The notes: a model not told the origin generated them from the sequence alone. A DNA stretch of 64,000 nucleotides from a virus (IMGVR_UViG_2868108522_000001:22546-86545), one strand, 5' to 3'; positions 23,033 to 42,263 are shown, counted from the first letter of the stretch. Numbers and translations: made by a program.

Positions 23033-23042
23033 GGAGGCCCTG

Positions 23043-24169: not shown

Positions 24170-24183
24170 GAAGTGCCCGCGCC

Positions 24184-24894
24184 ATGGCCGACGACCTGCT
24201 CGTCATCATCCCCACCCGAGGCCGACCGCAAGCCGTCATGCCGATCGTCAGGGCGTGGCACGAGACCGGCGCGACGGCCGATCTGCTGTTCGCGGTCGAC
24301 ACTGACGACCCCGAGCTGTCCGCATACAAGCGCGAGGCGGCGAAGTTCAAGTCGGGCGGGCAGATCCGGTTCACGTTCGGCAAGCGGCGGCGGCTGGTCG
24401 GCACCCTCAACCAGCAGGCCGTGAAGGCGGCCAAGGACTACCGGTTCCTGGCGTTCATGGGTGACGATCACCGTCCCCGCCCCGCCGCGATGCCGTGGGA
24501 TGCCCGCATCCGCGAGTGCCTGTCGGGCGGGCCCGGCATCGTCTACGGCAACGACCTGCTGCAAGGCGAGAAGATGGCCACTGCCGTCGCCATGACCGCC
24601 GACATCGTCCGAACGCTGAACTACATGGCGCCGCCCAGCATGGTGCACCTGTGCGTCGACCTGGTGTGGGTCGACTGGGGGCGCGGCATGGGGCGGATCA
24701 CCTACCTCGACGACATGGTGATCGAGCACCTGCACCCGGCCGCGTCGAAGGCCGAACTCGATGCCGTGTACGAGGAGTGCAACAGCGAGCAGCAGGTGTC
24801 CGCCGACACGGCCGCCTACTACGAGTACCGCGACGGCGGCGGCCTCGAAGCCGACCTTGCCAAGCTGCGGAAGCTCATCGAGGAGGCGGCGTGA
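24184..24894 (+). CDS. GT-A (family 2-like) glycosyltransferase
   Basis: VIIPTRGRP N-terminus, AFMGDDH metal-binding motif, EHLHP. Confidence 0.8.
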   Translation: MADDLLVIIPTRGRPQAVMPIVRAWHETGATADLLFAVDTDDPELSAYKREAAKFKSGGQIRFTFGKRRRLVGTLNQQAVKAAKDYRFLAFMGDDHRPRPAAMPWDARIRECLSGGPGIVYGNDLLQGEKMATAVAMTADIVRTLNYMAPPSMVHLCVDLVWVDWGRGMGRITYLDDMVIEHLHPAASKAELDAVYEECNSEQQVSADTAAYYEYRDGGGLEADLAKLRKLIEEAA

Positions 24895-25157
24895 TCCTCG
24901 CCTGCAAGGGCTGCGGTCGTACCAAGCCTGCCCCCGACGGAACACCGAACGACATCCACCCATCCGAGCACTGCGGAAGTTGCCCGCCATGGGCATGCGA
25001 GACATGCGGGGAGACGTGCAGCGCCACAGCGTTGTGCTCGTGCTGGCTGCCGCTCGACGGAATGGCGCATGCCGATATCAAAGCCCTCTTCGCGGCCGAT
25101 GGCACGTTCAACCTCGGCGGACTGATCGGATCCAGGGGGAGCGATGGGCGTCCGTGA
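24891..25157 (+). CDS. Cys-rich hypothetical protein
   Basis: Multiple CxxC motifs; GTGA coupling. Confidence 0.5.
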   Translation: MILACKGCGRTKPAPDGTPNDIHPSEHCGSCPPWACETCGETCSATALCSCWLPLDGMAHADIKALFAADGTFNLGGLIGSRGSDGRP

Positions 25158-25440
25158 CCACGAAACGCCCCCCTCGACCTGGTGCGATTGGTGGACCGAA
25201 GTCCATGACCTCACCGCCGACATCTCCTACGGCTGGGTTCCGCCGGAACTGACAGCAGACCCCGGCGACCCCAACCCCTGGTTCTGGCACTGGTGCAGCC
25301 AGCAAGGGCAGTGGAATGCGCAGGCCGCGCCCGAGCACTCGCTCGTGGCGCGTCAGCCGCTGCACATGGAGCCGTCCCTTCTGTGGTCGTGCTGCGGGAC
25401 ACACGGATTCGTCCGCAACGGGGAGTGGGTATCAGCGTGA
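25144..25440 (+). CDS. DUF6527-like small metal-binding protein
   Basis: C-terminal PLHMEPSLLWSCCGTHGFVRNGEW. Confidence 0.55.
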   Translation: MGVRDHETPPSTWCDWWTEVHDLTADISYGWVPPELTADPGDPNPWFWHWCSQQGQWNAQAAPEHSLVARQPLHMEPSLLWSCCGTHGFVRNGEWVSA

Positions 25441-26042
25441 CCGCCGACGACGTCATCAAGGCATGGGACCAGGCCGACCCGACCGCGATCCACCCGCTGC
25501 GGCAGGTCTCCGAAGAGGCGTACTGGGAGGCCGGCCGCGCGCAGGCCGACATGCTCGCCACCGTCATCCCCGGCAACGCCAAGGTCATGGACTTCGGATG
25601 CGGTGACGGACGCGTCGCCATCCCCATGGCGGAATGGGGCTACGAGGTGACCGCAGTCGACGCCTCCCAGCGCATGCTCGACCGGCTGTGGAAGCGAGCC
25701 CCCGAACTGACCGCTGTCCAGGCCGACGCCGACGGCGTCGCCGCACACCTCGGCCGCCGCCGCATGGACGCCGTGTACTCCCTCGCCGTCCTCATCCACC
25801 ACAGCTACAGCGACTGCCTGCACATCATCGGCAAGCTGCGGGCCGCGACCAAGATCGGCGGCATCCTCGTCCTCGACTGGCCCGTCTCCGACCAGCCGGC
25901 CGAAGCCGACAGCTGGATCGGCGTCACCACCTGGTCCCGGCAGCAGCAGGCCGACGCGTGCGCCGAGATCGGGCTGGAGCCTGTCGACAGCGGCCTGCCG
26001 TGGGGCGTGTACCGGGCCGTCAAGGCAGGCGTGGGTACGTAA
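25437..26042 (+). CDS. Class I SAM-dependent methyltransferase
   Basis: Motif I VMDFGCGDGR, VTAVDAS, DAVYSLAVLIH, GGILVLD. Confidence 0.9.
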   Translation: MTADDVIKAWDQADPTAIHPLRQVSEEAYWEAGRAQADMLATVIPGNAKVMDFGCGDGRVAIPMAEWGYEVTAVDASQRMLDRLWKRAPELTAVQADADGVAAHLGRRRMDAVYSLAVLIHHSYSDCLHIIGKLRAATKIGGILVLDWPVSDQPAEADSWIGVTTWSRQQQADACAEIGLEPVDSGLPWGVYRAVKAGVGT

Positions 26043-26323
26043 TGGGCGACGCTCCTCCCCTGACGTGGGAAGAACTCAAGCCATTCGAGCAGGAACAAGG
26101 CGGCTACTGGTACTACCCGTCAGGCTGTGACGTTTACGGCAACGGCAAGGTGTGGGTCCGCGTCCCTCGCCCTGAGCAGCCTGGTGAGATGGTCGGCTTC
26201 AAGAACCGGCTCGGCCTCCTACTGCGGGATGTCGAAACGCGTGCGATAGAGACAGGCAATGCCGAGATGGCTGCCTTGGCTGCCCAGTTGAAGCAAGTGG
26301 GGGTCCGATGCGAGTCCTCCTGA
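26042..26323 (+). CDS. Hypothetical protein (lower GC)
   Basis: TAATG coupling. Confidence 0.45.
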   Translation: MGDAPPLTWEELKPFEQEQGGYWYYPSGCDVYGNGKVWVRVPRPEQPGEMVGFKNRLGLLLRDVETRAIETGNAEMAALAAQLKQVGVRCESS

Positions 26324-27189
26324 CTGGCGCGTCGGGCTTCGTCGGCCGCCACCTCCACCGCGCGTTGGCCGATCGTGGCGACGACGTGTTCGCCCTCGAC
26401 CTGCGGCCCACACCCGGCGTGGAAGTCGGTGACGCCCTCGACTTCTTCCGCCACGACGACACCCGCATGGATCTCGCCATCCACTGTGCGGCGATCGTCG
26501 GCGGTCGGGCCAGCATCGACGGCTCCCCGCTCGGCGTCGCCACCAACCTCGCCCTGGACTCCTGGTACATGCGGTGGCTGGTCTGCACCCGCACCCCGCG
26601 AGCCGTCTACTTCTCCAGCAGCGCCGCCTACCCGGTGGAGCTTCAGCAGCCCGGCGACGTGCGGAAGCTGTACGAAGAGGACATCGACCTCGACCAGCCC
26701 GAGCAGCCCGACGCCACGTATGGCTGGGCGAAGCTGACCGGGGAGAAGCTCGCCCGGTACGCGGAGGCGGAGGGCTGCCGGATCCTCGTCCCCCGCCCTT
26801 TCTCCGGGTACGGCGAGGACCAGGACGAGGCGTACCCGTTCCCGGCGTTCACCCGGCGAGCCCGCGAGCACCAAGACCCGTTCGAAATCTGGGGGTCCGG
26901 CGACTCCACCCGCGACTGGATCCACATCGACGACCTCGTCGGCGCCACCCTCGCACTCCTCGACGCCGAGGTGACCGGACCGGTGAATCTCGGCTGGGGC
27001 AGGGCCACCTCGTTCAACGACCTCGCCCGGATCATGTGCGCCGCAGCTGGCTACCAGCCGACGCTGAAGCACCGGCACGACGCCCCGCAAGGCGTCCACC
27101 ACCGAGTGTGCGACCCCAGCCGGATGCTCGACCACTACATGCCCACTGTGACGCTGGAAGAAGGCGTGCGGCGGGCCGTCAATGTCTGA
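26308..27189 (+). CDS. NAD-dependent NDP-sugar epimerase/dehydratase (extended SDR)
   Basis: TGASGFVG Rossmann motif, SSSAAY, YGWAK catalytic YxxxK, RDWIHIDD. Confidence 0.93.
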   Translation: MRVLLTGASGFVGRHLHRALADRGDDVFALDLRPTPGVEVGDALDFFRHDDTRMDLAIHCAAIVGGRASIDGSPLGVATNLALDSWYMRWLVCTRTPRAVYFSSSAAYPVELQQPGDVRKLYEEDIDLDQPEQPDATYGWAKLTGEKLARYAEAEGCRILVPRPFSGYGEDQDEAYPFPAFTRRAREHQDPFEIWGSGDSTRDWIHIDDLVGATLALLDAEVTGPVNLGWGRATSFNDLARIMCAAAGYQPTLKHRHDAPQGVHHRVCDPSRMLDHYMPTVTLEEGVRRAVNV

Positions 27190-27210
27190 CCCCACGGAAG
27201 GCCCGCGCCC

Positions 27211-27489
27211 ATGGCTTCCCCTGTCCCTGACCTGCCCTTGTGGGCATGGAATCTGATCATCGCCATGCAGCAGCACGAAGAGCTGCACGGACGTGAGGAC
27301 ACCTGCCTGAAAGGCGTCCTCCATGCCGTCCCGCCCGAAGTCCTTCAGCAGGCCGAAGCGATCAGCGGCTACGTGAAGAAGGCCAGCGGCCAACAGATCG
27401 CCGACAACGCCATGGAGAAGTGGGGCGGCATTATGGACGCCTTCTTCGGGGCACAGAAGGCCGAGGCCGGGCCGGAGGCCGCGTCGTGA
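27211..27489 (+). CDS. Hypothetical protein
   Basis: GGAAGG RBS. Confidence 0.6.
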   Translation: MASPVPDLPLWAWNLIIAMQQHEELHGREDTCLKGVLHAVPPEVLQQAEAISGYVKKASGQQIADNAMEKWGGIMDAFFGAQKAEAGPEAAS

Positions 27490-27836
27490 CTGAGTCTGTT
27501 GCCATGCCGAACCCGTGCGAGCACGCATGGGAGTACAACAAGCCCGCCCACGCCAGCGCCTCCGTCCGCATCTGCTCCCTCTGCCACCAGATAGACGGCG
27601 AAGAACTGATGCGCACCCTCAACGAGTACGCGACCGCGTTCAAGCAGAAGCCGACGACCCTCGTCTACGCCTGGTCCGACGGCCGCACGTACAGCGTCAT
27701 CGACCAGCCCGGCGGCATCCCCGACAGCGCACGCGAACGCGCCCTCCTACGCGGACTGCTCGGCCACGCCCTGTCGCAGCTCGATCAGTACGAGATCACC
27801 GGACCGCTCGGCATTGCCACCCAGGAGGCGACGTGA
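27486..27836 (+). CDS. Hypothetical protein
   Basis: GTGA coupling. Confidence 0.6.
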   Translation: MTESVAMPNPCEHAWEYNKPAHASASVRICSLCHQIDGEELMRTLNEYATAFKQKPTTLVYAWSDGRTYSVIDQPGGIPDSARERALLRGLLGHALSQLDQYEITGPLGIATQEAT

Positions 27837-28072
27837 GTACGACTGCCGACAGCACCCGCCTCATCAAGACCGTTTGGCGCGGGGAGAAGCCGTGGCACTG
27901 GAAGGCCCTCAAGACCGGGCACGTCCAGCCGTTCGGCTACCGCACCTACTGGCGCAGCCGCTGGCTGTGGCAGATCCACTTCACGCCGGTCCACATCGCC
28001 CGCGACAACAGCCAGTGGGAGATCGGCCTCTGCCTCGGCAAGCGGACGATCTTCCTGCTCTCACACTCCTAG
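27833..28072 (+). CDS. Trp-rich hypothetical protein
   Basis: GTGA coupling, AGGAGG RBS. Confidence 0.55.
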   Translation: MSTTADSTRLIKTVWRGEKPWHWKALKTGHVQPFGYRTYWRSRWLWQIHFTPVHIARDNSQWEIGLCLGKRTIFLLSHS

Positions 28073-28094
28073 CCCACAACCTGGAGTCGGCACC

Positions 28095-28307
28095 ATGCAG
28101 GAAGATCTGAGCCTCTGCGGCTGGGGCGACTGCCAGGAGACGGCCACGACCGCACTCCGCTTCCGCGATCAGCCCGGCCACATCCACAACTGCGACCCGC
28201 ATGCTGCACTCAACCGAGAATGGTCCGACGTGATCGAGTCCGCGCCCATGCCGAACTGCCCGTTCGTGCACGGCGAGATGTGGATCGACATGCCCCGCGA
28301 CCTCTGA
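28095..28307 (+). CDS. Hypothetical protein
   Basis: GGAG RBS. Confidence 0.55.
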   Translation: MQEDLSLCGWGDCQETATTALRFRDQPGHIHNCDPHAALNREWSDVIESAPMPNCPFVHGEMWIDMPRDL

Positions 28308-28325
28308 CCACCCGGAGCCCGCGCC

Positions 28326-28763
28326 ATGGATCTCCACGCCTGGATCACCCAGCAAGTCGACGAGGTCGAGCGACTGATCGAAGAGAACGAGTTCTCGCCC
28401 AGCCAGACGGAAGGCGTCCGCCTCCGCTGCGAAGCCGACCGGCGCATCCTCAACCGGCACCGGCTCGATCCGACAGCCGCCAACAGCTCGTTCGAAGCCG
28501 CATGCGAAGGCTGCGGGCACGAGTGGCTGTGGGACGATCCCGTGCCGTTCGTCGACAACATCAACGACTGCCCCGAGCTGCTGGACCTCGCGCACGCGCA
28601 CGGCATCACGCCCGAGATCCTCGCCAGCCTCGACCGGCCGCAGATCCCTAAGCCGCCGCCGCGCAGCGAGCGCCGCCTCGGCCTCGGCGACATCCTCGCC
28701 ACCCCACCCGTCACCACCAGCCAGGTGCCCGCCGCACTACGCGGACCCCGCTGGAAACCCTGA
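28326..28763 (+). CDS. Hypothetical phage protein (DUF6221-related)
   Basis: RCEADRRIL..H...CEGC...CPELLDLA pattern. Confidence 0.65.
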   Translation: MDLHAWITQQVDEVERLIEENEFSPSQTEGVRLRCEADRRILNRHRLDPTAANSSFEAACEGCGHEWLWDDPVPFVDNINDCPELLDLAHAHGITPEILASLDRPQIPKPPPRSERRLGLGDILATPPVTTSQVPAALRGPRWKP

Positions 28764-28950
28764 CCACCACAGGAGCCCGCGCCATGGCCCATGACGACAA
28801 GAAGGCCACAAGCATCCCGGTCTGCGACCGATGGCTGCACGAAGTCTGGTGGCGAATCGCCCGCTGGCCGGAGAGCGATCGGGCCGCTGGCCGAGTCGCG
28901 CTCGCCGAGTACCACACTCATCGTTCCGCACCCAAGGCGGTGACCGGCTG

Positions 28951-29622
28951 ATGGCCCGCCTGCAGATCCTCGAACTCCCCGAAGGCAGCGGCGACGACCG
29001 GCCGCCCTTCGTGCTCGTCGTCGACCAGGTGCCCGCCAACGGGGACGGATTCGAAGCCCTCCGACGCGACCTGATGGACGACTACCTCGCCGCGCGCACC
29101 GGCGCCCGCGCCGTCCTCGTCTTCGAAGACACCATCGACATCCCCGCCAACGACACCAGCGCCTACCTCCGCGAAGCGGAAGCGACGTGGACCCCGGTCG
29201 ACGAGATGGAAGTACTCCGTCAGCAGGCCAGGCACAGCGAAGAAGCCGAAGCCATCCGGAAGCGCGTCTCCAAGGAACAGAAGGCCGCCCTCACCGACGC
29301 CCTCGGCATGGACGGGATCCGCGACTGGGACGACATCCTCAACGCCGCACGCGGACTCCGCACGCAGCGCGACGCGCAGGCCGAGGCTATCGAGCGTGTC
29401 CGCAACCTGCACCGGCCCGTCGAACACAGAGGGCAGACCATCTGCTGGGAATGCTCCGACTACGACTTCCCCGGCCAGACCACCGACAGCCCGCCCGTCG
29501 CCCACGACCAGTGCGCCACCCTCCGCGCACTCAACGGGCCGTCCAAGTGGTGCTGCGGCCCTGCCTCCGACACCAACGGCATCACGCACCTCGCCGAGTG
29601 CCGAGGCAGACGCGATGCCTGA
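28951..29622 (+). CDS. Hypothetical phage protein
   Basis: High GC3; MARLQILELPEG start. Confidence 0.7.
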   Translation: MARLQILELPEGSGDDRPPFVLVVDQVPANGDGFEALRRDLMDDYLAARTGARAVLVFEDTIDIPANDTSAYLREAEATWTPVDEMEVLRQQARHSEEAEAIRKRVSKEQKAALTDALGMDGIRDWDDILNAARGLRTQRDAQAEAIERVRNLHRPVEHRGQTICWECSDYDFPGQTTDSPPVAHDQCATLRALNGPSKWCCGPASDTNGITHLAECRGRRDA

Positions 29623-29818
29623 CGTGACGGTGAAGCTGTCCGACGGCATCCGCGACATCACCGTCGAGATCACAGGCGCAGACGAAGCACTCCGCCGCGC
29701 CGAAGAAACCGCCATCCGGTTGTACGACGTTGCCATCGCAGGCAGCCCCACCGACAGGCGCGCCGGCTTCGCAGGCTGGTCACCCAGCAGCACAACCGAA
29801 CGCAGCCCCGAGGAGTAG
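29615..29818 (+). CDS. Hypothetical protein
   Basis: Overlapping operon gene. Confidence 0.55.
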   Translation: MPDVTVKLSDGIRDITVEITGADEALRRAEETAIRLYDVAIAGSPTDRRAGFAGWSPSSTTERSPEE

Positions 29819-29820
29819 AC

Positions 29821-30180
29821 GTGGTTCCCGCATCCGTCATGGAGCGCCTCAAGACAGAAGGACGCGCCATAACCATCTACCCCGTCGGGCTCCTCGCCGA
29901 CCTGTCCCGCTTCGTTCACGAAGCAGATAGGGTCGCCGCCCGCCGACACCTCCGCGCATCACTGCATCGCGAGTGGGAGCGGATCAAGGCCCGCAAGTGG
30001 CGCGAGGCGAAGAACTACCTGAACGGCTACCTCGCTGAACACGACACGCTCGGCACCCGATGCGGCACCGGCTGGACGCGAGGGCGTGCACTGCGAGACC
30101 TGGCCCGGCATCTCATCGAGCTCGAATCACTCAAGGAGATCGAGCGGGTCTTCTCCGAGCTGCGCGCGAGTGGACCGTGA
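29821..30180 (+). CDS. Hypothetical protein
   Basis: GAGGAG RBS. Confidence 0.55.
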   Translation: MVPASVMERLKTEGRAITIYPVGLLADLSRFVHEADRVAARRHLRASLHREWERIKARKWREAKNYLNGYLAEHDTLGTRCGTGWTRGRALRDLARHLIELESLKEIERVFSELRASGP

Positions 30181-30470
30181 GCGGCGGCTGGCAGGGTAGC
30201 GACCGCAAGAGCCGACTACCGTCGAACTGGGCGACGATCCGCCGCAAGGTGCTCGACCGCGACCCGATCTGCAAGCTGTGCGGCGTGAGGCCGTCCACCC
30301 ACTGCGACCACATCGAAGCCAAGACCGACGCCCACGCCGAAGACCGACTCCAAGGGGTCTGCGAACCCTGCCACCTGCAGAAGTCCAGCCGCGAAGGCCT
30401 CGCCGCGCAGCGCGCCAACCCGCGGCCCGGACGGACGAGGCCACAGGAACCGCACCCAGGGCTGAGGTGA
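30177..30470 (+). CDS. Terminase-associated HNH endonuclease (HK97 gp74-like)
   Basis: W.TIRRKVLDRDPICKLC...DHI...LQGVCEPCH.QKS; lies upstream of the candidate cos and terminase. Confidence 0.85.
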   Translation: MSGGWQGSDRKSRLPSNWATIRRKVLDRDPICKLCGVRPSTHCDHIEAKTDAHAEDRLQGVCEPCHLQKSSREGLAAQRANPRPGRTRPQEPHPGLR

Positions 30471-30474
30471 CACC

Positions 30475-30672
30475 ATGCCCCGCTGGCTCATCCAATTCCC
30501 CGGAGCCCAAGGCCGCGACGACTTCCGCATCGACGACGACCTCGCCCTCACCTTCAGCGGAGACTGGGCCATCTTCACCGACCAGCACGGCCCCAACTAC
30601 GCACTCCCCGCAGGCCTTGGCGTCATCATCGAACGGGTAGACGAAGACCAGCCCGCGCCGCAGAAGGAGTGA
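30475..30672 (+). CDS. Hypothetical protein
   Basis: GAGG RBS. Confidence 0.6.
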   Translation: MPRWLIQFPGAQGRDDFRIDDDLALTFSGDWAIFTDQHGPNYALPAGLGVIIERVDEDQPAPQKE

Positions 30673-30678
30673 TGACCT

Positions 30679-30915
30679 GTGGCATCCAAGGGACGCGGCC
30701 GGCGAGGCAACGCGGAGACCTTCCGCCGGTACTGGGGCCCGTCGGGCAAGGGCGGCGCACGCATCCGCTGGAATACCCCCGGGGACTGGACAAGGTGCAA
30801 CAGGCTCCTCAGCCGCTACATGGCCGGCCGAGCCCGCGGCTACTGCCAGCTTCTCCACCGGAGGTACACCGGCAGCTACACCGGCAGTCGGGCCAACATC
30901 GGCCGACGACGGTGA
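30679..30915 (+). CDS. Small basic phage protein
   Basis: RRYW...ARIRWNTPGDWTRC...GYCQLLH...TG; AAGGAG RBS. Confidence 0.7.
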   Translation: MASKGRGRRGNAETFRRYWGPSGKGGARIRWNTPGDWTRCNRLLSRYMAGRARGYCQLLHRRYTGSYTGSRANIGRRR

Positions 30916-31015
30916 GGAACCAGCCGACTGTCAGCGGGCGTTGAGACAATAGAACCCCGGCGAGTGCTACCAACACTCCCGGGGCCACGGCCAGCCCTGA
31001 CACGACAGGACCAGC

Positions 31016-31762
31016 ATGCCCAACGCTACACGCCCCACCACCATCACCTGCGCACGCTGCGGCGCGGAGAAGACTGTCGGACGCACCGGCCCGATACCCA
31101 CCTACTGCTCCGCCTCATGCCGGGCCCGCGTCAAAGACGAGAGAGCTCGCGCAGACGGGCGGTACGAAGCAGAGCGGACCGCCGCCCGAGAAAAGACTCG
31201 GCAACAGCGGGAAGTCAACGCACGTCCGTGCCCTTACTGCACCGCGCCCATGGTCAACCCCCAGCGCAAACAGTGCGGCAGGCCCGAATGCAAGCGGGCC
31301 TTCAACGCCGAACGAATGCGAGATTGGAACCGGCAGTACAAGGCTGAGCATGGGCAGTGGTACACCAGGCACCGGCACGGAGAGGCGCAGCGGGTGTACA
31401 TGCGGCGGCGCCGCCAGGAGATCGGGCACTGGAGGCTGCTCTATCCAGCAGCGGCTGCAGCAGCCGACGCACGCAGGCGAGCACTCGTGCAGCAGGCGCG
31501 AACCGACGAGGTGTTCGCACCGCTCGACATCCACGTGCGGGACGGCTGGACCTGCCAGCTGTGCCACGAGCCCATCGACCGAGCCATCGCATGGCCGCAC
31601 CCCAAGAGCCCGAGCATCGACCACATCGTCCCTCTGTCCCGAGGCGGAGCACACGCACTGAGCAACGTCCAGAGCGCCCACCTCGGATGCAACAGCAGCA
31701 AGCGCGACAGGGACATGGAGGCCGCGGTCACCCTCCTCACCCGCCTCGCCGGCCAGGCGTAG
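31016..31762 (+). CDS. HNH endonuclease with N-terminal Zn-finger repeats (homing type)
   Basis: YCSASC and CGRPEC fingers; RDGWTCQLC...DHIVPLSRGG.H..SNVQSAH..CN. Confidence 0.9.
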   Translation: MPNATRPTTITCARCGAEKTVGRTGPIPTYCSASCRARVKDERARADGRYEAERTAAREKTRQQREVNARPCPYCTAPMVNPQRKQCGRPECKRAFNAERMRDWNRQYKAEHGQWYTRHRHGEAQRVYMRRRRQEIGHWRLLYPAAAAAADARRRALVQQARTDEVFAPLDIHVRDGWTCQLCHEPIDRAIAWPHPKSPSIDHIVPLSRGGAHALSNVQSAHLGCNSSKRDRDMEAAVTLLTRLAGQA

Positions 31763-31959
31763 GGCAGTCCACCAGGCTGGCCGCCGGGGCAGGGCAGGCA
31801 TGCATGGCGTGAGGCGCGGCGACGTGGTCACCGTGATCATGGTGCAGCGAGCACAGGTGATCGCTCATGTGAGCCGAACGCTGCACGCCTGAGCCACACG
31901 CGCAAGTCAGGCCTATCGGATCGAAACGGACATAGGGTGCGATGGTGTCGTCACTCCAG

Positions 31960-32065
31960 GTCAGAGGGTCGGGCGGCGCGAACCGGACATAGGGGGCGTA
32001 CCCCCCACCCGTCGTGATCGACAGATCGGCCTCGTATAGCACCTGACATCCCGCCCGGGTTTCCA
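31960..32065. other. Candidate cos/packaging site
   Basis: Non-coding gap between HNH and terminase genes; GGGGG-CGTA-CCCCCC inverted element, CGGCCTCGTA (32027-32036) resembling actinophage 3' cohesive ends, repeated CGGACATAGGG; top strand shifts from C-rich to G-rich here. Confidence 0.55.
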
Positions 32066-35097: not shown

Positions 35098-36563
35098 CCC
35101 TGTCGATTCCCGAGCTGCCGCTGGTGTATCTGTCTGACGAGGAGCAGGCGCTGATCAACCTGCTGCGTGCCGACATGCTGCGGGACCGGTGGGCGCTGCA
35201 GTTGCGGGACGCCTATTTCAACGGCGAGCAGCTGATCCGCGACCTGGGAATCTCGATTCCGCCGCAGCTCAAGGGTCTGCATACGGTGATCGGCTGGCCT
35301 CGGGTGGGTGTCGAAAGCCTGGAGGAGCGCCTGGATTTGGAGGCGTTCCGGTGGGCGGACGGCTCGGATTCGTCGGAGTTGACGGAGATCGCCGAGGCGA
35401 ACGACCTGTTCGACGAGTCGTCGCTGGCTCACCTGGACGCCTTCGTGTACGGCCGGGAGTATCTGGCGGTCGGTTCGGGTGGTTGCGGAACGGATGAGTG
35501 CCCGCCGCTGATCACGGCGGAGTCGCCGTTGGACATGACGCTGATGTGGGATGCCCGCATGCGCATGGGCACCGCGGCGCTCCGCGAGTGCGCCGCCGAC
35601 TCGTACATTGAGGCGGGCCCTGAGCAGCGGATGCTGGTCCTGTATCTGCCGGACCAGACGGTGATGTGCTTGCCGTCGGAGTCGGGAGGCTGGGAGGTCG
35701 TCGACCGGGACGAGCACAAGCTCGGTGTCGTGCCGGTGGTCAGGTTGGCGAACCGGCAGCGAACTGCGGACCGGGTCGGCAAGTCGGAGATCACGCCTGA
35801 GGTCATGTCGATCACGGATGCCGCCTGTCGGCGCCTGATGGGTATCGAGGTCGCGGCCGAGTTCTTCGGGGCGCCAGCTCGCTACATTCTGGGTGCAAGC
35901 GAGTCTGCGTTCCAGGATGCAGAGGGCAACGCCAAGTCGGCGTGGGAAACGTATATCGGTCGGGTGCTCGCGCTGGAGCGGGACGAGGAAGGCAACGTGC
36001 CGGACGTAGGTACGTTCCCCGCCCATGATCCGTCCGGCCAGACGAAGATCATCGATCTGTATGCGCGGATCATGGCGTCGCAGATGTCGGTGGCCCCGCA
36101 CGTCCTCGGCTACAGCAGCGACAACCCAGCCTCCGCAGACGCGATCCGGTTCGCCGACAACCGGCAGGTGAAGAAGGCCGAGCGCCGCATCCGCCGGTTC
36201 GGTGCAGGGTGGCAGCAGGCCATGCGGCTCGCCCTGTGGATCCGTGACGGGGAGCCGCCGGACAAGACGCGTCGCATCGAAACAGTGTGGCGGAATCCGG
36301 CGACACCGACGGTGGCCGCCCAGGTGGATGCCACGGTCAAGCTGGTGCAGGCAGGCGTCCTCCCGGCGGACAGTGACGTCACCCTGGAGATGGCTGGGTT
36401 CACGGAGCCGCAGCGGCAGCGAATCGCGGCGGACCGGCGCCGTGGCGCCGGTCGGGCGGCTGGCAGCGCGCTACTCGACCGTTTCGCCGAGATCCGGGCT
36501 GGCTCGTCTACGGCGAGCACCGAGCCGTCGGAGGCCGACGGTGGCGTCGACGACCTCGGATAG
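35094..36563 (+). CDS. Portal protein (SPP1 Gp6-like)
   Basis: GWPRVGVESLEERL, HKLGVVPVV, GKSEI, NPASADAI, W.NPATPT. Confidence 0.93.
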   Translation: MTLSIPELPLVYLSDEEQALINLLRADMLRDRWALQLRDAYFNGEQLIRDLGISIPPQLKGLHTVIGWPRVGVESLEERLDLEAFRWADGSDSSELTEIAEANDLFDESSLAHLDAFVYGREYLAVGSGGCGTDECPPLITAESPLDMTLMWDARMRMGTAALRECAADSYIEAGPEQRMLVLYLPDQTVMCLPSESGGWEVVDRDEHKLGVVPVVRLANRQRTADRVGKSEITPEVMSITDAACRRLMGIEVAAEFFGAPARYILGASESAFQDAEGNAKSAWETYIGRVLALERDEEGNVPDVGTFPAHDPSGQTKIIDLYARIMASQMSVAPHVLGYSSDNPASADAIRFADNRQVKKAERRIRRFGAGWQQAMRLALWIRDGEPPDKTRRIETVWRNPATPTVAAQVDATVKLVQAGVLPADSDVTLEMAGFTEPQRQRIAADRRRGAGRAAGSALLDRFAEIRAGSSTASTEPSEADGGVDDLG

Positions 36564-37356
36564 CTCACCCGGTGTGGCCCGTTGGCGGTCCGCGCAGCAG
36601 GGCTTGACGGCTCTGCTGCTGCGGGATCTGCGAACGCTGCGGCGGCTGATCAATCCGCGCCGGTTGCAGGCGACGGTGCCCCCGTGGATCGAGGCAGTGG
36701 CCGCTGTGGTGGACCAGTACGCGGAAGTGTCGGCGGCTCTGGCCGCGGACTTCTACGACGGGCAGCGCGCAGACGCCGGTGTGCCGGACGGGTTCACGGC
36801 CCGGCTGGCGGACGCCCCGCCGGGCGAGCAGGTGGACGCGTCAATGCGGTGGGCCACGAAAGACGTATGGGACCGAGACGCCGACGTGGCGACCCCGGTG
36901 CAGCTGGAGCCGCTGGACGTCCGGCTGGAGGCCGCGTTCGTGAAGGCGGACATGGCCACACAGCGTCTTGTGGCTGATGTGGGCCGGGAGACGGTCCGTC
37001 AGGCGGTCAGGCAGGATCGGCAGGCTGTGGCGTATGCCCGGGTGGCAGCGCTCGGCGCCTGCTCCTTCTGCAAGCTCATGGCATCCCGCGGGTCGGTCTA
37101 TGCCACGGCAGAAACCGCAGGTCGGGATGCGAATGACCGGTTCTCCGGTGACGCGTCGGTGGTGAAGTTCCACAACAACTGCCACTGCGGGATCCTGCCG
37201 GTCTTCCGCGGTCAACGGTTCCAACTGTCGCCGCACGCGGCGCGCTGGGACGAGATCTACCGCGAGTACGCCCAAGGCCATCCGGGAGACCAGCTTCGCC
37301 TGTTCAGGCGGGCCCTGGCGGAGCACGACGACCATCCGCTTCCCGGATCTCACTGA
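36541..37356 (+). CDS. Minor head / capsid maturation protein (MuF-like)
   Basis: YARVA...ACSFCKLMASRG.VY...FHNNCHC..P; lies between portal and scaffold. Confidence 0.8.
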   Translation: MASTTSDSSPGVARWRSAQQGLTALLLRDLRTLRRLINPRRLQATVPPWIEAVAAVVDQYAEVSAALAADFYDGQRADAGVPDGFTARLADAPPGEQVDASMRWATKDVWDRDADVATPVQLEPLDVRLEAAFVKADMATQRLVADVGRETVRQAVRQDRQAVAYARVAALGACSFCKLMASRGSVYATAETAGRDANDRFSGDASVVKFHNNCHCGILPVFRGQRFQLSPHAARWDEIYREYAQGHPGDQLRLFRRALAEHDDHPLPGSH

Positions 37357-37419
37357 TCAACCCGGTCGCCCTGGTGGCGGCCTTCCCCTTTTCCACAGCC
37401 CCTGGAGGGCCGATTCGTC

Positions 37420-38079
37420 ATGCCCGAAGAGACCGAGACCAGCGAGCAGCAGACCGACTCCGGCACCGAGGAGACCGTCGACGAGACGGCCACCGAGGAG
37501 ACGGACGGCGCCGAGCAGCAGGAGACCGCCCAGGAGGCGGACACCGGCAGTGAGGAGAAGCCGTTCGACCGGAAGCAGGCCGAGGCAAAGATCCGCAAGG
37601 CGAACTCGGAGGCCGCGAACCTCCGCAAGCGCCTGAAGGAACAGGAGCCTCTGCTCGCCGAGCTGAAGAAGCGCAAGGACGCGGAACTCTCCGAGTCCGA
37701 GCGCCTCAACGAGCAGCTCGCTGCCGCACAGGAGCAGATCACGAAGACGCGGCAGCGGCTGGTCCGCAGCCAGGTGCAGGCCCTCGCCAGCACTGCAACC
37801 CAGGAGCGGGCGGCGTTCGCCGATCCGGCTGACGCGTTCGGCGAGCTCGACCTGGACTCGTACATCGACGACTCGGGCGACATCGACGAGCCCGCCATCG
37901 AGGCGGATCTTCAGGCGCTGTTGGAGCGCAAGCCGCACTGGGCGAAGACCCAGCCCCAGGAGGGCCCGCGGCGTCCCGCGCCGGACCGCACACAGGCGTC
38001 CGGCGCCAACAAGCAACGGCCCCTCAACCCTGCGGACGAGTTCGCGGGGTTCATGAACACGCGGCTTACGCGCCGCTGA
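37420..38079 (+). CDS. Capsid scaffolding protein
   Basis: Acidic N-terminus, coiled coil, located before the major capsid gene. Confidence 0.85.
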   Translation: MPEETETSEQQTDSGTEETVDETATEETDGAEQQETAQEADTGSEEKPFDRKQAEAKIRKANSEAANLRKRLKEQEPLLAELKKRKDAELSESERLNEQLAAAQEQITKTRQRLVRSQVQALASTATQERAAFADPADAFGELDLDSYIDDSGDIDEPAIEADLQALLERKPHWAKTQPQEGPRRPAPDRTQASGANKQRPLNPADEFAGFMNTRLTRR

Positions 38080-38091
38080 AAGAGGTAGATC

Positions 38092-39048
38092 ATGGCGGCT
38101 ACGCCTGCCCTCAAGCTGTCCGACGTCAACGATGCACTTCTGCCCCGCACTCTCGCGGGGCCGATCTTCGAAAAGTCGGTCGAATCCAGCGCGGTCATGC
38201 AGCTGGCCCGTCCGGCTCCGCTCGCCCTGGACGCGACGACCTCGGTTCCGATCCCGCTGGACGTGCCGACCGCCGACTGGGTCGGCCAGGCCGCAAGGAA
38301 GCCGCTGTCCAGCGGCGGTGTCGCGGTGAAGCAGATGCAGGCGAAGAAGGTCGCCGTGCTGATCCCGGTCGCCGAAGAGGTCGTCATGACCAACGCGGGC
38401 GGCCTGTGGACGCAGCTCCAGAAGGATCTGCCGACCGCGTTCGCCCGTGCCTTCGACCACGCGGCGATCCACGGCAAGACCATGAAGGGCGCCACCGGCC
38501 CCTTCGCCGACTACCTGGCGGCCACCGACAACGAGGTCGTCCTCGGTACGGCGCCGCGCGACGAGGGCGGCATCTGGGCCGACTTCGTCGACGGCATGGA
38601 GTTGGTCGTCGATGAGGACTGGGACTACACCGGTACCGTCGCGGACCACCGGCTGAAGCCGAAGCTGCTGCGTGCGACGGACGCGAACGGTCAGCCCATC
38701 CTGGTGGACACGCAGACGCCGGGTACGAACATGGCGGCGGCCGGCACGCTGGTTGGTGAGCCGCTCGCGTACTCCCGCAGTGTGTCGGGTAAGCAGCGTC
38801 GGCAGTCCGCCAGTACGGACACGGGCCTGCGGGCGATCGGCGGCGACTGGAGCCAGGCGGCCTACGGGATCGGCATGGACATCACCGTGCGGATCTCTAA
38901 GGAGGCGACCTACGTCGACGAGGACGGCGGCGTGCACTCTGCGTTCCAGGAGAACCTGGTGCTGCTGCTGGCGGAGGCCTACTACGGCTTCGTCATGGGC
39001 GCCGAGGACGCGTTCGTCCGCTTCACTGGCGCCGCGAGCGGTTCCTGA
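38092..39048 (+). CDS. Major capsid protein (HK97 fold)
   Basis: SAVMQLA...WVG...KK.AVL.PV..E...AFARAFD.AAIHG...GDWS...FQEN.V; ends in SGS. Confidence 0.93.
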   Translation: MAATPALKLSDVNDALLPRTLAGPIFEKSVESSAVMQLARPAPLALDATTSVPIPLDVPTADWVGQAARKPLSSGGVAVKQMQAKKVAVLIPVAEEVVMTNAGGLWTQLQKDLPTAFARAFDHAAIHGKTMKGATGPFADYLAATDNEVVLGTAPRDEGGIWADFVDGMELVVDEDWDYTGTVADHRLKPKLLRATDANGQPILVDTQTPGTNMAAAGTLVGEPLAYSRSVSGKQRRQSASTDTGLRAIGGDWSQAAYGIGMDITVRISKEATYVDEDGGVHSAFQENLVLLLAEAYYGFVMGAEDAFVRFTGAASGS

Positions 39049-40076
39049 TGGGGGCGGTCCCGGCTTCCGCGCCGGGCGGGACCGCCAAGCCGCTGCGGGT
39101 CGTGGCTCGTGTTCACGCGATGCCGCCGGAGCACAACGCTGGGGCCGAGCACATGCTCGTGTCGATGCTTCGGCCGCTGGTGGAACGTGGCCACGACGTG
39201 CAGGTGTGGCTGTCCCGCTACGGCAAGGCCCACCAGGAGTACGACTACCGCGGCATCAAGGTCGTCCCTCTGGAGTCCCGCCTGGACTTCCCGTCGGCGG
39301 TCCGCAAGGCGGACGTGCTGCTGGCGCATCTGGAGACGGTCCCATCGACGGCGTCGCTGGCCCGCGGCTACGGCAAGCCTCTGGTGGTGGTGTGCCACAA
39401 CACGCACCGGCCGACGTTCCGGGATGCTGCGGCGGGCGGGACCGCCTTGGCGGTCTACAACTCGCTCTGGATGGAGCGGGAGGCGGAGCTGTTCTTCGCC
39501 GAGTACCCGAAGGCCATCCGGCCCACCGAGTCGCTGATCGTGCGACCTCCAGTGTTCGCCGACGAGTACGCAACGAAGCCCGGCAAGGCCATCACGCTGA
39601 TCAACTGCAACCCGGAGAAGGGCGGCCGGGTCCTCAAGGCTCTCGCCGAACGGATGCCGGACCAACAGTTCCTCGCCGTGAAGGGCGCCTACGGCCAGCA
39701 GATCCTCCCCGACCTGCCCAACGTCGAAATCGTCGACCACGTCCGCGGCGAGGACATGCGGCAGCGGGTGTATACCCGCACTCGGGTGCTGCTGATGCCG
39801 TCGTCCTACGAGTCGTGGGGCCGTGCCGGCGTGGAGGCGCTCGCCAGCGGCATTCCTGTCCTGGCTCACCCAACGCCGGGCCTGTGCGAGTCCCTCGGCG
39901 AGGCCGGCATCTTCGTCGACCGAAACGACGTCGACGGCTACGAGGCGGTCCTGCGGAAGCTCGCGGCTCCTGCCGAGTACCGGCTGGCGTCGAAGCGGGC
40001 GAAGACCCGGTCCGCCGAACTGGACCCGGCTGCTGATCTGGCGGCGTGGTGTTCGGCTGTGGAGTCTCTGGCCTGA
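39048..40076 (+). CDS. GT-B (family 4) glycosyltransferase, coupled to the major capsid gene
   Basis: GAE N-terminal motif, EKGG, LLMPSSYESWGRAGVEALASGIPV (Ex7E); TGATG overlap with the capsid stop. Confidence 0.92.
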   Translation: MGAVPASAPGGTAKPLRVVARVHAMPPEHNAGAEHMLVSMLRPLVERGHDVQVWLSRYGKAHQEYDYRGIKVVPLESRLDFPSAVRKADVLLAHLETVPSTASLARGYGKPLVVVCHNTHRPTFRDAAAGGTALAVYNSLWMEREAELFFAEYPKAIRPTESLIVRPPVFADEYATKPGKAITLINCNPEKGGRVLKALAERMPDQQFLAVKGAYGQQILPDLPNVEIVDHVRGEDMRQRVYTRTRVLLMPSSYESWGRAGVEALASGIPVLAHPTPGLCESLGEAGIFVDRNDVDGYEAVLRKLAAPAEYRLASKRAKTRSAELDPAADLAAWCSAVESLA

Positions 40077-40086
40077 GGAGGGCGTG

Positions 40087-40497
40087 ATGGCATTCGTCCC
40101 TCCGACCGCGGAGCAGCTCGGCCTGTACCTCGGTCTCGGTGAGATCGACGGAGCGCGGGCGGATCTGCTTCTCGCAACGGCGATCTCGCTCTGCCAGACG
40201 ATCGTGAAGCCTCTCCCTGAGGGCGCTGAGGCGGTTGTCCTGTCGGTCGCGGGTCGTGCCTACGTGAATCCGCAGCAGGTGTCCTACGAGACGATCGGCC
40301 CGATGTCGGTGCAGCGCCCTCAGGGCTCTGGCGGCCTGTACCTGACGAAGGCCGACAAGAGTGCGCTCAAGAGTCTCGCCGGCCGGGGCGGGGCGTTCAC
40401 GATCGACCCGACACCGGCGGAGGCGGATCCGTCGCCGACGTGGCCTGTCGACGACATGGGCTTCGCCGACGAGTTCGAACCGGGCTGGGGCTACTGA
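40087..40497 (+). CDS. Head-to-tail adaptor
   Basis: RAYVNP...ETIGP...GLYLT..DK..L; position. Confidence 0.8.
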   Translation: MAFVPPTAEQLGLYLGLGEIDGARADLLLATAISLCQTIVKPLPEGAEAVVLSVAGRAYVNPQQVSYETIGPMSVQRPQGSGGLYLTKADKSALKSLAGRGGAFTIDPTPAEADPSPTWPVDDMGFADEFEPGWGY

Positions 40498-40868
40498 TGC
40501 CCGCCCCGTACCCGTTCGGGGAGACGGTGCGGATCGTCCGCACCGGCCTGTCGCCGGGCCGTAATCCTCGGGGCCAGCCGCTGCCGGGACCGGACGAGTC
40601 GTTCGACATTCCGGGCTGTGTGGTCGCGCCGAGGGCGGAGACGCCGCAGGTGGGCGGCGAGCAGCAGCAGGAGCGGGACACGGTCATCGTCGGCTGGACC
40701 GTGTATGCGCCCGCCGATCAGCCCGGTATGCCGCTCCGCACCACGGACAAGGCCCGCATCCGCGGCGTCGACTGCGACATCACCGGCGAGCCAGGCGATT
40801 GGGGCCGCTCCCCATTCACTGGCACCCGCGGCGTCGTCCAGTTCGCCGCCGACCGTGTCACCGGCTGA
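40497..40868 (+). CDS. Head-to-tail stopper
   Basis: GETV...PGCVVAP...TVYAP...GEPGDW; position. Confidence 0.8.
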   Translation: MPAPYPFGETVRIVRTGLSPGRNPRGQPLPGPDESFDIPGCVVAPRAETPQVGGEQQQERDTVIVGWTVYAPADQPGMPLRTTDKARIRGVDCDITGEPGDWGRSPFTGTRGVVQFAADRVTG

Positions 40869-40883
40869 CGGAGGGAGGCCGTC

Positions 40884-41213
40884 ATGCCTGGCAGGTTCAA
40901 GCCGAAGCGGAAGGGCATCGGGCAGATGCTGCGTATGCCTGGCATGCAGGCGGAGATGCTGCGCCGCGCCGAGGTCATCAAGGGCATCGCCGTGGCGACG
41001 TCCCCGGTCGATACGGGCAGCTACCGGCCTGGCCTGTACAAGTCGTCGTGGGAGACGGACAGTACCCGGCGTGGTGGCCGCCGCCGGGACCGCGCTGTCG
41101 CCTACGTCCGCAACCCGACCTACTACGCCCGCTGGGTGGAGTACGGCACGGAGAAGGTGCCCGCGCATCACGTGCTGCTGCGGGCAGCCCAGTTGGGTGG
41201 GCGGAACCAGTGA
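40884..41213 (+). CDS. HK97 gp10-like tail completion protein
   Basis: SPVDTG...YA.WVEYGT. Confidence 0.85.
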   Translation: MPGRFKPKRKGIGQMLRMPGMQAEMLRRAEVIKGIAVATSPVDTGSYRPGLYKSSWETDSTRRGGRRRDRAVAYVRNPTYYARWVEYGTEKVPAHHVLLRAAQLGGRNQ

Positions 41214-41602
41214 CCGTGGTCGTCGACATTGAGGGTGAGCTGATCCCTCGCGCGCAGGCCCGCTGGCCGGACGCCGTGGTCCGGGACGAGCTGGACAACG
41301 AGCTGCTCAACGAGCTGCCGACGATTCAGATCACGCAGGTTCCGGCTGGGGAGCTTGCTGCCAGCAGGCTGGCCCGAATGCTCGTCGACATCGACGTGTA
41401 CGCGGCCACCCGCCAAGCAGCGTTCGACTTGGCCCGCGAGACCGTCACGTGGGTGGAGCGGGAGCTGCGCGGCTCGACCACCAGCACGCTGACCATCGGC
41501 CGCGCCGGTGTCGTCACCCTGCCCGCCGCCCGGCCCTACGAGAACACCGCCCTGCGTCGCGTGGGCGGCACCTTCGAGATCTTCTGTCACCCGGTCTCCT
41601 GA
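41210..41602 (+). CDS. Tail terminator
   Basis: LVDIDVYA.TR..A..LA; located before the major tail gene. Confidence 0.75.
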   Translation: MTVVVDIEGELIPRAQARWPDAVVRDELDNELLNELPTIQITQVPAGELAASRLARMLVDIDVYAATRQAAFDLARETVTWVERELRGSTTSTLTIGRAGVVTLPAARPYENTALRRVGGTFEIFCHPVS

Positions 41603-41675
41603 CCGGCTGTTCGGCCCGCGCCAGGCCCTTTCAGTACCCGCCCGTGCGCGGGCTTCACGCATGTCTGGAGACATC

Positions 41676-42263
41676 ATGGTCAACATCACCCGCGCTGCGG
41701 ATCTGCTGGAGGTCGGTGCGAACGGCGCCGGCTGGACGGCGCCGTTGGGCACGACGTCGCCGGGCGATCCGGCGATCCAGCCGCTGGCGCCGTGGCTGCC
41801 TCTCGGCGCCATCTCGGACGACGGTCTGGTGCAGGGCTTCGAGGAGGACTCGGAGTCGTTCACTCCGTGGGGTCTGACGGCACCGATCCGCACGTCGATC
41901 ACCTCGTCGCTGCGGACGTTCGGGCTGACGGTGTGGGAGACGGGCCGGACGACGGTGCAGGCCCTGCAGTACCGCCTGGACACCGCGGACCTCACCCCGG
42001 TCGACGGGCTCACCTCGTTCGCGGAGACCGCGTCCCCGTCGCCGGACCGGCGGGCGTTCTGGTTCGTCGTCCTCGACGGCGACAACTTCCAGCGCGGCTT
42101 CTACTGCCCCGAGGCGGAGATCACCGAGCGGTCCGACGTGACGCACAAGCAGGATGAGGTCGCTGGCTACGAGTGGACGATCACTTGCTACCCGGACTCG
42201 GCCGGCTTCACGGTCTACCACTTCGACCGGGTGCCTGAGACCGAGGCGTACACCGGGTCCTGA
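41676..42263 (+). CDS. Major tail (tube) protein
   Basis: LGAISDDGL...PWG...EITERSDV...YEWTIT.YP; ends in TGS. Confidence 0.88.
   Translation: MVNITRAADLLEVGANGAGWTAPLGTTSPGDPAIQPLAPWLPLGAISDDGLVQGFEEDSESFTPWGLTAPIRTSITSSLRTFGLTVWETGRTTVQALQYRLDTADLTPVDGLTSFAETASPSPDRRAFWFVVLDGDNFQRGFYCPEAEITERSDVTHKQDEVAGYEWTITCYPDSAGFTVYHFDRVPETEAYTGS

Follow-up and report, generated by a model that had tools for sequence, protein, structure and literature searches.

On balance, the stretch of viral DNA analysed here (IMGVR_UViG_2868108522_000001:22546-86545, 64,000 nucleotides, the whole of which is called the window below) probably enables a temperate siphophage of Streptomyces to O-glycosylate its virion. 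The gene of a GT4-family glycosyltransferase is coupled to the gene of the major capsid protein, and the capsid and the tail tube protein both carry short, Gly-Ser-ended C-terminal tails which this enzyme would glycosylate. Three further genes, here called the trio, encode a GT-A-fold glycosyltransferase, a methyltransferase and a protein of the short-chain dehydrogenase/reductase (SDR) type, and would tailor the glycan. From the comparison of related sequences we consider the link between the GT4 enzyme and the two virion proteins likely, while for the role of the trio in tailoring the glycan the arguments are evenly balanced. The window corresponds to G000:C1:2808947-2872946 of an 8.41-Mb single-contig genome (G+C about 69%), and the closest kin of its phage genes sit in genomes titled Streptomyces. 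Genes were called by codon bias and annotated with Pfam and PHROGs between 20.9 and 54.3 kb, and with PHROGs alone on the rest of the window.

The glycosyltransferase gene behind the capsid gene

The major capsid protein is of the HK97 type, 318 amino acids (aa) long, and is encoded at 38092-39048 on the plus strand (PF05065 3e-20, phrog_10 6e-40), the strand that also carries the GT4, tail tube and trio genes. Its stop codon TGA (39046-39048) overlaps by one base with the start codon ATG (39048-39050) of the next gene, i.e. the two genes are translationally coupled by a TGATG stop/start overlap at 39046-39050. The same overlap is found in 10 of the 15 GT4-linked loci L043-L057, the window's own included, and one more has ATGA. 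The downstream gene (39048-40076, plus strand) encodes a GT4-family (GT-B) glycosyltransferase of 342 aa, the proposed initiating enzyme. It scores above the gathering cut-offs of PF13692 (51.5 against 27 bits), PF00534 (43 against 26.4) and PF13439 (29.9 against 28.5), and it matches phrog_26352 (2.8e-170), the family of the capsid-coupled GT4, which is labelled 'unknown function' in PHROGs. An earlier reading of the window by a model, referred to here as the sequence-only reading, had placed this gene in the head operon with a TGATG junction to the capsid gene, and the gene calls, the Pfam matches and the shared base 39048 confirm it.

The EX7E motif is a mark of retaining GT4 enzymes. In the window it is formed by E255 and E263 (39810-39836, plus strand), both of which are invariant in GT4 alignments of 12 and 17 sequences that include homologues down to 45% identity. 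The catalytic motif is intact, and judged by these alignments the GT4 looks active. A role of the GT4 in anti-phage defence or conflict was considered and rejected: PADLOC gave no match for the GT4, the GT-A protein or the SDR protein (the methyltransferase matches a generic methyltransferase domain only), and the match of the GT4 to PF20706 is confined to residues 235-290, the generic GT4 core.

Gene order in the relatives shows how very tightly the GT4 gene is tied to that of the capsid. When each species was represented by one genome, 41 loci were found, all in Streptomyces, with a GT4 at 69-92% identity; the window-type capsid gene lies directly upstream in 36 of them, with about 600 nucleotides in between at L021. 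When the genus was sampled, 16 out of 401 genomes carried the window capsid, and outside G000 the GT4 follows in all 14 loci with capsid identities of 38-86%, while two loci with 30% capsid identity have no GT4 downstream. The class-level sample, also of 401 genomes, contains 22 with a capsid relative, and there the GT4 is adjacent, outside G000, only in a single genome (two of two loci); the locus of genome G689 from this sample is excluded from all counts. Among the viral contigs the GT4 follows the capsid gene in all 76 that have at least 1 kb downstream (80 contigs, 74-94% identity). Under the strict criterion 64 of the 76 count, the other 12 being flagged because a stop-to-stop frame extends back over the capsid gene. 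The window-type capsid itself occurs in more than 400 viral-contig stretches. As for isolated phages, megablast of 37400-42300 against the phage collection, with very close records possibly left out, returned no match, and tblastn of the GT4 against phage records matched TurkishDelight alone; the best capsid match among the phage records is 36% identical. The family to which the prophage of the window belongs was found here only as prophages and uncultured viral contigs.

Serine-ended tails of the capsid and the tail tube

By translation, the capsid protein ends in ...FTGAASGS. Its last seven residues, TGAASGS (312-318, at 39025-39045, plus strand), constitute the proposed O-glycosylation tag, and according to an alignment of homologues they extend past the conserved end of the fold, ...FV[KR][YF]T. 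The capsid of Rothia phage Spartoi, the nearest cultured relative, stops at ...FVKYTI. The tail tube (major tail) protein of 200 aa is encoded at 41661-42263 (plus strand, PF25681 2e-13, phrog_117 5e-37) and ends in ...EAYTGS, where AYTGS (42246-42260, plus strand) is the proposed second acceptor. These are the termini that the sequence-only reading had given, and ...ASGS and ...YTGS are both Ser-ended, as would be expected of acceptor tails. Apart from these two, no gene call from 20 to 55 kb ends in Gly-Ser; in the host genome 0.92% of 5132 crude open reading frames (ORFs) have this ending, 0.27% have [ST]-Gly-Ser and 8.2% have Ser.

The GT4 is inherited together with a Ser-ended capsid and a Ser-ended tail tube. 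The 110 unique, complete, window-type capsids linked to a GT4 end in Ser (96), Thr (10) or GSA (4), the final tripeptide is SGS in 72 of them, and Ser and Thr make up 47% of the last eight residues as opposed to 16% protein-wide. One particular tail, TGTPSGS, is found in 47 of the 80 viral-contig relatives. All 94 unique tail tubes are Ser-ended (59 with TGS, 20 with SGS), though the mean column conservation of the protein is only 0.79. Even in the most divergent GT4-linked lineage (genome G115), where the capsid is 38% identical, the capsid ends in ...PARS and the tail tube in ...PPGS. The computational check proposed in the sequence-only reading, i.e. whether such tails co-occur with the GT4 gene in related prophages, is therefore passed, with a terminal Ser or Thr in 106 of 110 capsids and 94 of 94 tail tubes.

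The same reading had raised the possibility that terminal Ser might be equally common where there is no glycosyltransferase. The controls were 19 capsid relatives, namely 17 loci of the class-level sample and the two 30%-identity loci mentioned above, with about 10 kb on each side; G662 (capsid cut at the contig end) and G467 (a fragment) were dropped. A Pfam scan for glycosyltransferases in the 180 ORFs of at least 150 aa in these regions found none, a crude filter applied to contigs several of which are short, and the positive control L203, whose tail tube ends in ...PPGS, yielded its GT4. Terminal Ser is much rarer here: four of the 19 control capsids are Ser-ended (...DHS, ...AAGS, ...NAS and ...AIS) and none is Thr-ended, and none of the eight recognised tail tubes ends in Ser or Thr, since all end in Ala or Pro. 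Spartoi, a complete genome with 56 annotated genes, has no annotated glycosyltransferase, and its tail protein ends in ...YMT.

A second capsid type with its own GT4

In five of the 41 genome loci the gene order is different: a second capsid type, 23-28% identical to the window type (27-28% by tblastn), is followed by a GT4 of its own (47-49% identical) and then by the resident GT4. Loci with the second capsid type are L025, L026, L040, L041, L042 and L204-L241 (e.g. L204:8001-10700). In viral contigs with at least 65% identity and room downstream, a GT4 stands right behind the second capsid type in 34 out of 35 cases. Capsids of this type that are linked to a GT4 end in ...TTAAS, ...THQS, ...TAAS or ...GPNS, while L243, the one exception among the 35, has no GT4 and ends in ...LKTA. 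Most of the double-GT4 prophages retain the resident GT4 together with a tail tube ending in Y[TS]GS. This would fit an arrangement of one GT4 per tag, the imported enzyme serving the ...TTAAS of the imported capsid and the resident enzyme the Y[TS]GS of the resident tail tube.

More distant members of the second type were also collected. No GT4 was seen in the 36 contigs at 55-59% identity (L248-L283, 31 with at least 1 kb downstream), and the capsids of these contigs carry long, basic C-terminal tails such as ...RRSRS, ...GRSTK and ...RKSE.

The upstream GT-A, methyltransferase and SDR genes

The trio lies about 12 kb upstream of the capsid and GT4 genes, on the late strand, with replication-type genes on one side and the terminase genes on the other; the integrase gene is not its neighbour. 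That the three genes are on the same strand had been pointed out in the sequence-only reading and holds true, the methyltransferase start given there, 25437, being the fifth codon of our call.

The first gene (24184-24894, plus strand) encodes a glycosyltransferase of 236 aa, the proposed glycan-extending enzyme, which matches phrog_14945 ('glycosyltransferase', 3e-47). The protein has no match in Pfam even at E<=1 and none in NCBIfam, i.e. it is not a GT2 protein by Pfam, and the source records of some of its relatives call them GT2 or GT-A. An AlphaFold2 model built with 120 diverse homologues (pLDDT 96.2, pTM 0.93) was compared with Foldseek and matched K4CP, the WrtF fucosyltransferase, SpsA, TarS and hyaluronan synthase with a probability of 1.0, and TarP as well, with TMq values of 0.50-0.64; an earlier model with 17 close homologues (pLDDT 50) was not used. 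According to this model the product has the GT-A fold. D94 is found in every one of the 120 sequences and D95 and H96 in nearly all, which corresponds to an acidic motif of the DxD type. When the family profile was run against PDB sequences, only chance-level matches were obtained. The family is large, with 2845 cluster representatives at E<=0.001, mostly viral by language-model neighbours, and it includes fusions with a GT2 domain or with a methyltransferase. The protein also matches phrog_2675, which bears the label 'DNA methyltransferase'.

Homologues of the GT-A protein with 36-41% identity are present in Streptomyces phages of about 130 kb and Arthrobacter phages of about 194 kb (e.g. Blueeyedbeauty 58120-58758 and Jay2Jay 15579-16208). 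In these large phages they often adjoin a nucleotidyltransferase gene annotated as heptose-1-phosphate adenylyltransferase-like, which suggests a phage-encoded pathway of sugar activation.

The second gene (25425-26042, plus strand) encodes a class I S-adenosylmethionine (SAM)-dependent methyltransferase of 205 aa (PF13649 1e-13, PF08241 7e-12) with the SAM motif ...DFGCGDG. It is separated from the GT-A gene by a spacer of 530 nucleotides (24895-25424), and a Trp-rich ORF of 98 aa without a family match is found at 25144-25440; in the relatives the two genes abut or are 48-249 nucleotides apart. The third gene (26308-27189, plus strand) encodes an extended-SDR protein of 293 aa that belongs to the NDP-sugar epimerase/dehydratase/reductase family (PF01370 9e-34, 117 bits against 20.9). 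Its motifs are intact, TGASGFVG for TGxxGxxG and YGWAK for YxxxK, and among proteins of solved structure it comes nearest to GDP-L-fucose synthase and GDP-mannose 3,5-epimerase (6e-20 to 2e-18). An assignment as GDP-L-fucose synthase was tried and rejected, because the protein reaches 83.9 bits with the equivalog model NF047922, far below its cut-off of 500, and the host has no Gmd above the cut-off (best match 41 bits against 415), so that a particular sugar is not assignable to the SDR protein.

How regularly does the trio accompany the GT4? In 13 relatives the upstream 20 kb were inspected (only 10 kb in one case, where the contig ends), and all three genes were found in eight, GT-A and SDR in one, the methyltransferase alone in one and none in three. 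Complete in 8 of 13, the trio thus often accompanies the GT4 module but is dispensable to it. A connection between the presence of the trio and a Ser or Thr end of the capsid was also considered (all eight full-trio relatives are Ser-ended, and three of the four without GT-A are Thr-ended) and set aside, since the cases are too few and too closely related.

The proposed system and its alternatives

The system we propose would work as follows. Late in infection the head operon would produce, by translational coupling, both the capsid protein and a soluble GT4 with GT-B fold and EX7E motif. Using a nucleotide-sugar of the host, the GT4 would place the first sugar on a Ser or Thr in the short, flexible C-terminal tail, a type of tail common to the capsid (...T-G-x-x-S-G-S) and the tail tube (...Y-[TS]-G-S), so that each subunit of either protein would then bear a surface glycan. 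Where the trio is present, the SDR protein might convert a nucleotide-sugar into a rarer one, which the GT-A enzyme would add and the methyltransferase would O-methylate. Methylation of the transferred glycan is at least as likely as methylation of the donor. The phage may benefit in that its particle is shielded or adsorbs differently. Virion glycosylation on C-terminal Ser tails, the central suggestion of the sequence-only reading, thus gains comparative support, as the Ser/Thr tail tracks the GT4 and similar termini occur in the mycobacteriophages Che8 and Corndog, where glycosylation of the virion has been reported; the support consists of sequence evidence. The further suggestion, that both the synthesis and the methylation of the sugar donor are encoded by the phage, agrees with the presence of the SDR and methyltransferase genes, which is circumstantial given a trio complete in 8 of 13 relatives and a sugar that cannot be assigned.

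There are a number of observations that weigh against this proposal and need to be discussed. The evidence for virion glycosylation is comparative throughout, and the counts are inflated by related sequences: the GT4-linked proteins are akin and may represent perhaps 3-5 independent lineages, not hundreds. Four of the 19 control capsids, which have no glycosyltransferase within about 10 kb, are Ser-ended, one of them (L188) in ...AAGS. Neither PF00535 nor PF00534 is matched anywhere in five whole records of distant second-type relatives, of which two are 98% complete or more, and the distant second-type relatives without a GT4 still have tail tubes ending in ...YFT or ...YFS. By itself, a hydroxyl residue at the terminus is thus not diagnostic and predicts nothing; judging from all the termini compared, the diagnostic signal is a small-residue tail that ends in Ser. 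Five of the 13 relatives have only part of the trio or none of it, the GT-A homologues of the large Streptomyces phages adjoin nucleotidyltransferase genes, and the fold matches of the GT-A protein include prophage enzymes that modify polymers of the host wall (TarP, TarS). The Actinoplanes phage phiAsp2 has a glycosyltransferase cluster like that of Che8, yet its capsid ends in ...GCCP. Finally, BLASTP of the window's GT4 and GT-A against the Che8 and Corndog enzymes gave no match at E<=0.01, and in hhalign the profile of the GT-A family reached a probability of 16% with Che8 gp109 and 0.3% with Corndog gp36. As no similarity is detectable, the likeness to these phages is one of analogy, in logic and not by descent.

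The main rival explanation is that the enzymes modify the host envelope, e.g. a polymer resembling wall teichoic acid or a lipid-linked precursor, as TarP does, and thereby block superinfection or keep the progeny from sticking to debris, the Ser tails having nothing to do with it. This is suggested by TarP and TarS among the fold matches and by the nature of the element, a prophage with an integrase gene (57053-58072) and an optional, moron-like trio, and it suits the trio more than the GT4. We consider it unlikely, given that the GT4 lies in the head operon with its start codon coupled to the stop codon of the capsid gene, is kept down to a capsid identity of 38% and is duplicated when a foreign capsid arrives. 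The trio, for its part, is on the late strand, flanked by replication-type genes and the terminase and away from the integrase, and none of the enzymes matches a defence model except for the generic methyltransferase domain. A different function for the trio alone is conceivable, with the GT4 glycosylating the virion and the trio acting on phage DNA, on a small molecule or on another virion protein such as the Gp80-like, probably fibre-associated proteins described below. The 5 of 13 GT4-bearing relatives in which the trio is absent or partial would be in keeping with this, as would the phrog_2675 label 'DNA methyltransferase', the nucleoside glycosyltransferase AvpGT among the fold matches and the nucleotidyltransferase genes next to the homologues in 130-kb Streptomyces phages. 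The label, however, derives from the phiAsp2 protein Pas34, itself noted as a putative O-methyltransferase, whose methyltransferase domain (Methyltransf_24) is that of Che8 gp108 and Corndog gp35, and the GT-A domain of phiAsp2 is located between homologues of Che8 gp108 and gp110. The scans of the window (Pfam and PHROGs at 20.9-54.3 kb, PHROGs alone elsewhere) revealed no gene for base modification, be it of the hydroxymethylase type or another, which argues against DNA as the substrate. The Gp80-like genes are absent in 12 of 13 relatives while the full trio is present in eight. On the whole we give this explanation, too, a low probability.

The Ser tails could also serve assembly, e.g. through contacts in the capsomer or tube or through recognition by a protease. 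The GT4 gene would then be carried along for the sake of some other substrate, and would co-occur with the tails by shared ancestry. The kinship of the GT4-linked sequences, by which the counts overstate independence, and the 4 of 19 Ser-ended capsids without a glycosyltransferase are compatible with such a role. It seems very improbable to us nonetheless, for the pattern repeats itself with an unrelated capsid type that brings its own GT4, in TurkishDelight (double GT4, capsid ...GSTS, tail protein ...CVAS) and, with wholly different enzymes, in Che8 and Corndog; moreover, the tail lies past the conserved end of the fold.

If glycosylation of the virion by the GT4 is correct, it would extend the phenomenon to a widespread family of Streptomyces prophages and to a second, unrelated class of enzymes. 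In the literature examined, experimentally reported glycosylation of phage particles is confined to a few mycobacteriophages. The C-terminal Ser tag would be the recognition element and would give a simple, testable rule by which glycosylated phages could be predicted from sequence, as well as a possible tool for sugar-tagging of proteins. One can go further and speculate that the Gly-Ser-ended tail of small residues is a portable 'glyco-tag', which actinobacterial phages have reached repeatedly with unrelated enzymes (GT4 on the one hand, GT2/GT25 on the other), so that one soluble GT4 reads the tag on two unrelated virion proteins and, in the double-GT4 prophages, each GT4 is matched to its own tag. 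This generalisation is tentative, and we rather doubt that all of it is right. If it is true, an enzyme and a tag of at most seven residues would amount to a minimal two-part system for cytoplasmic O-glycosylation of any protein C terminus.

Gene order of the prophage

The gene order in the window is that of a siphophage-type prophage. The small and large terminase genes (32955-35097) are followed by the portal gene (35094-36563), a gene for a VG15-family protein that PHROGs describes as head maturation protease (36574-37356) and the scaffold gene (37420-38079). Behind the capsid and GT4 genes there are adaptor, closure, neck and terminator genes (40084-41602), then the tail tube gene, the chaperone genes and the gene for a tape measure protein of 1542 aa (43213-47841). 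Residues 682-1493 of the tape measure protein also match phrog_971, an 'endolysin' PHROG (4e-97), and a weak NlpC/P60 start is found at residues 1354-1375. Genes for tail proteins, an endolysin and a holin come between the tape measure gene and the tyrosine integrase gene (57053-58072).

Just past the integrase gene there is an endonuclease VII-like gene (58102-58536) and a gene for a Ku-like DNA-end-binding protein (60433-61332, phrog_4873, 1e-62). To the left of the late genes, the segments 2795-3840 and 10696-12951 hold a pair of genes for NUDIX hydrolases and one that is FtsK/SpoIIIE-like (phrog_12531, 4e-64), an arrangement that resembles Streptomyces integrative conjugative elements. A scan of the window for tRNA genes found none. 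The scan for promoters and terminators at 19000-38500 gave no promoter-like sequence and six terminator-like ones against 7.0 expected from shuffles, and is thus uninformative as to operons.

Upstream of the terminase genes and outside the tail operon there is a duplicated cassette (spanning 20507-23879, plus strand), each copy of which has a gene for a Gp80-like small protein (20507-20905 and 22661-23032; PF23140 4e-23, phrog_240) and behind it a large ORF, of 470 aa in the first copy and 278 aa in the second; the cassettes are probably fibre-like. The Gp80-like proteins end in ...PQSS and ...FSAS, which fits the claim of the sequence-only reading that two fibre proteins are Ser-ended, but the large ORFs behind them end in Trp and Arg. 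As the Gp80-like genes are present in 1 of 13 relatives and absent from the other 12, they are not counted in the glycosylation system.

Comparison with known systems

It is useful to compare the window with the phages in which glycosylation of the particle is established. According to papers that cite Freeman et al. (2023, Cell Host Microbe 31:1216), Che8, Corndog and Myrna have glycosylated virions, in which the capsid and the tail tube are modified by glycosyltransferases of the phage; gp110 is essential in Che8 and gp38 in Corndog, and cluster O phages have an O-methyltransferase gene upstream of three glycosyltransferase genes (PMC11256854, PMC12363180, PMC11600133, PMC13313380). The reported glycosylation of both Che8 proteins bears out the precedent invoked in the sequence-only reading, and the deposited Che8 proteins do end in Gly-Ser (capsid ...NKTGS, tail tube ...YSDGS), while those of Corndog end in ...PLVGS and ...IKGDS. 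Both phages thus have, like the window, short Ser-ended tails on capsid and tail tube, and the terminal dipeptide is common to the window, Che8 and Corndog proteins, being Gly-Ser in three of the four Che8 and Corndog proteins and Asp-Ser in the fourth. Work by Freeman and colleagues from 2023 reportedly locates virion glycans at the C terminus, and is said to note putative glycosyltransferases in Streptomyces phages.

The enzymes themselves are different. Che8 gp108 is a fusion of a GT2 and a Methyltransf_24/TylF domain, gp109 is a GT2 and gp110 a GT25-like protein; Corndog gp35-38 are the equivalents of Che8 gp108-110 and are encoded in the head operon between the portal and capsid genes. 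The window has instead a GT4 of GT-B type coupled to the capsid gene, a distinct GT-A family and a Methyltransf_25/11-type methyltransferase, as opposed to the Methyltransf_24/TylF type of gp108 and gp35. The window's trio includes an SDR gene, of which there is none in the Che8 and Corndog clusters, and its host is Streptomyces. The organisation, on the other hand, bears similarities in as much as a methyltransferase is encoded with the glycosyltransferases (in the window it adjoins the GT-A gene), and Corndog keeps its methyltransferase and three glycosyltransferases inside the head operon.

A closer parallel to the GT4 is found in the Streptomyces phage TurkishDelight. Its gp20 (L001:7945-9981), annotated as a glycosyltransferase, contains a GT4 that is 38.5% identical to that of the window and is encoded between the major capsid and major tail genes, and the capsid (...PGSTS) and the tail protein (...FCVAS) both end in Ser. 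The differences are that gp20, with 678 aa, consists of two GT4 modules fused in tandem, that the phage is 94 kb in size, and that its capsid protein of 575 aa is unrelated. In the literature searched no function has been reported for gp20, which makes TurkishDelight a cultured phage whose virion may be glycosylated. The search on virion glycosylation in Streptomyces phages returned only a Rhodococcus-phage paper that speculates on glycosylation, and the Jabs preprint and the Claus/Corndog cryo-EM preprint make no mention of virion glycans.

Prophage-encoded glycosyltransferases with other targets should also be mentioned. TarP of S. aureus (PDB 6h1j, 6h4m) is, like the GT-A protein of the window, a soluble enzyme of GT-A fold encoded by a prophage, but the similarity is distant (TMq 0.52-0.55, identity 8-9%), and the substrate of TarP is a host polymer, wall teichoic acid.

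For the trio the most instructive comparison is with phiAsp2. The N-terminal half of its Pas34 protein belongs to the GT-A family of the window (35% identity, 9e-38) and is joined to a Methyltransf_24 domain, a fusion which supports the view that the GT-A enzyme and the methyltransferase are a working pair. Pas34 is flanked by Pas33, similar to the N-terminal half of Che8 gp108 (5e-12), and by Pas35, similar to Che8 gp110 (1e-24). Unlike the window, phiAsp2 has no GT4, the neighbours are glycosyltransferases of the Che8 type, and the cluster lies behind the tail genes. The phiAsp2 cluster is the best link from the GT-A/methyltransferase pair of the window to a proven virion-glycosylation cluster. 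Glycosylation of phage virions is thus already known as an idea; what would be new in the system described here is the different class of enzyme, its coupling to the capsid gene, the shared rule for the C-terminal tag and the spread in Streptomyces prophages.

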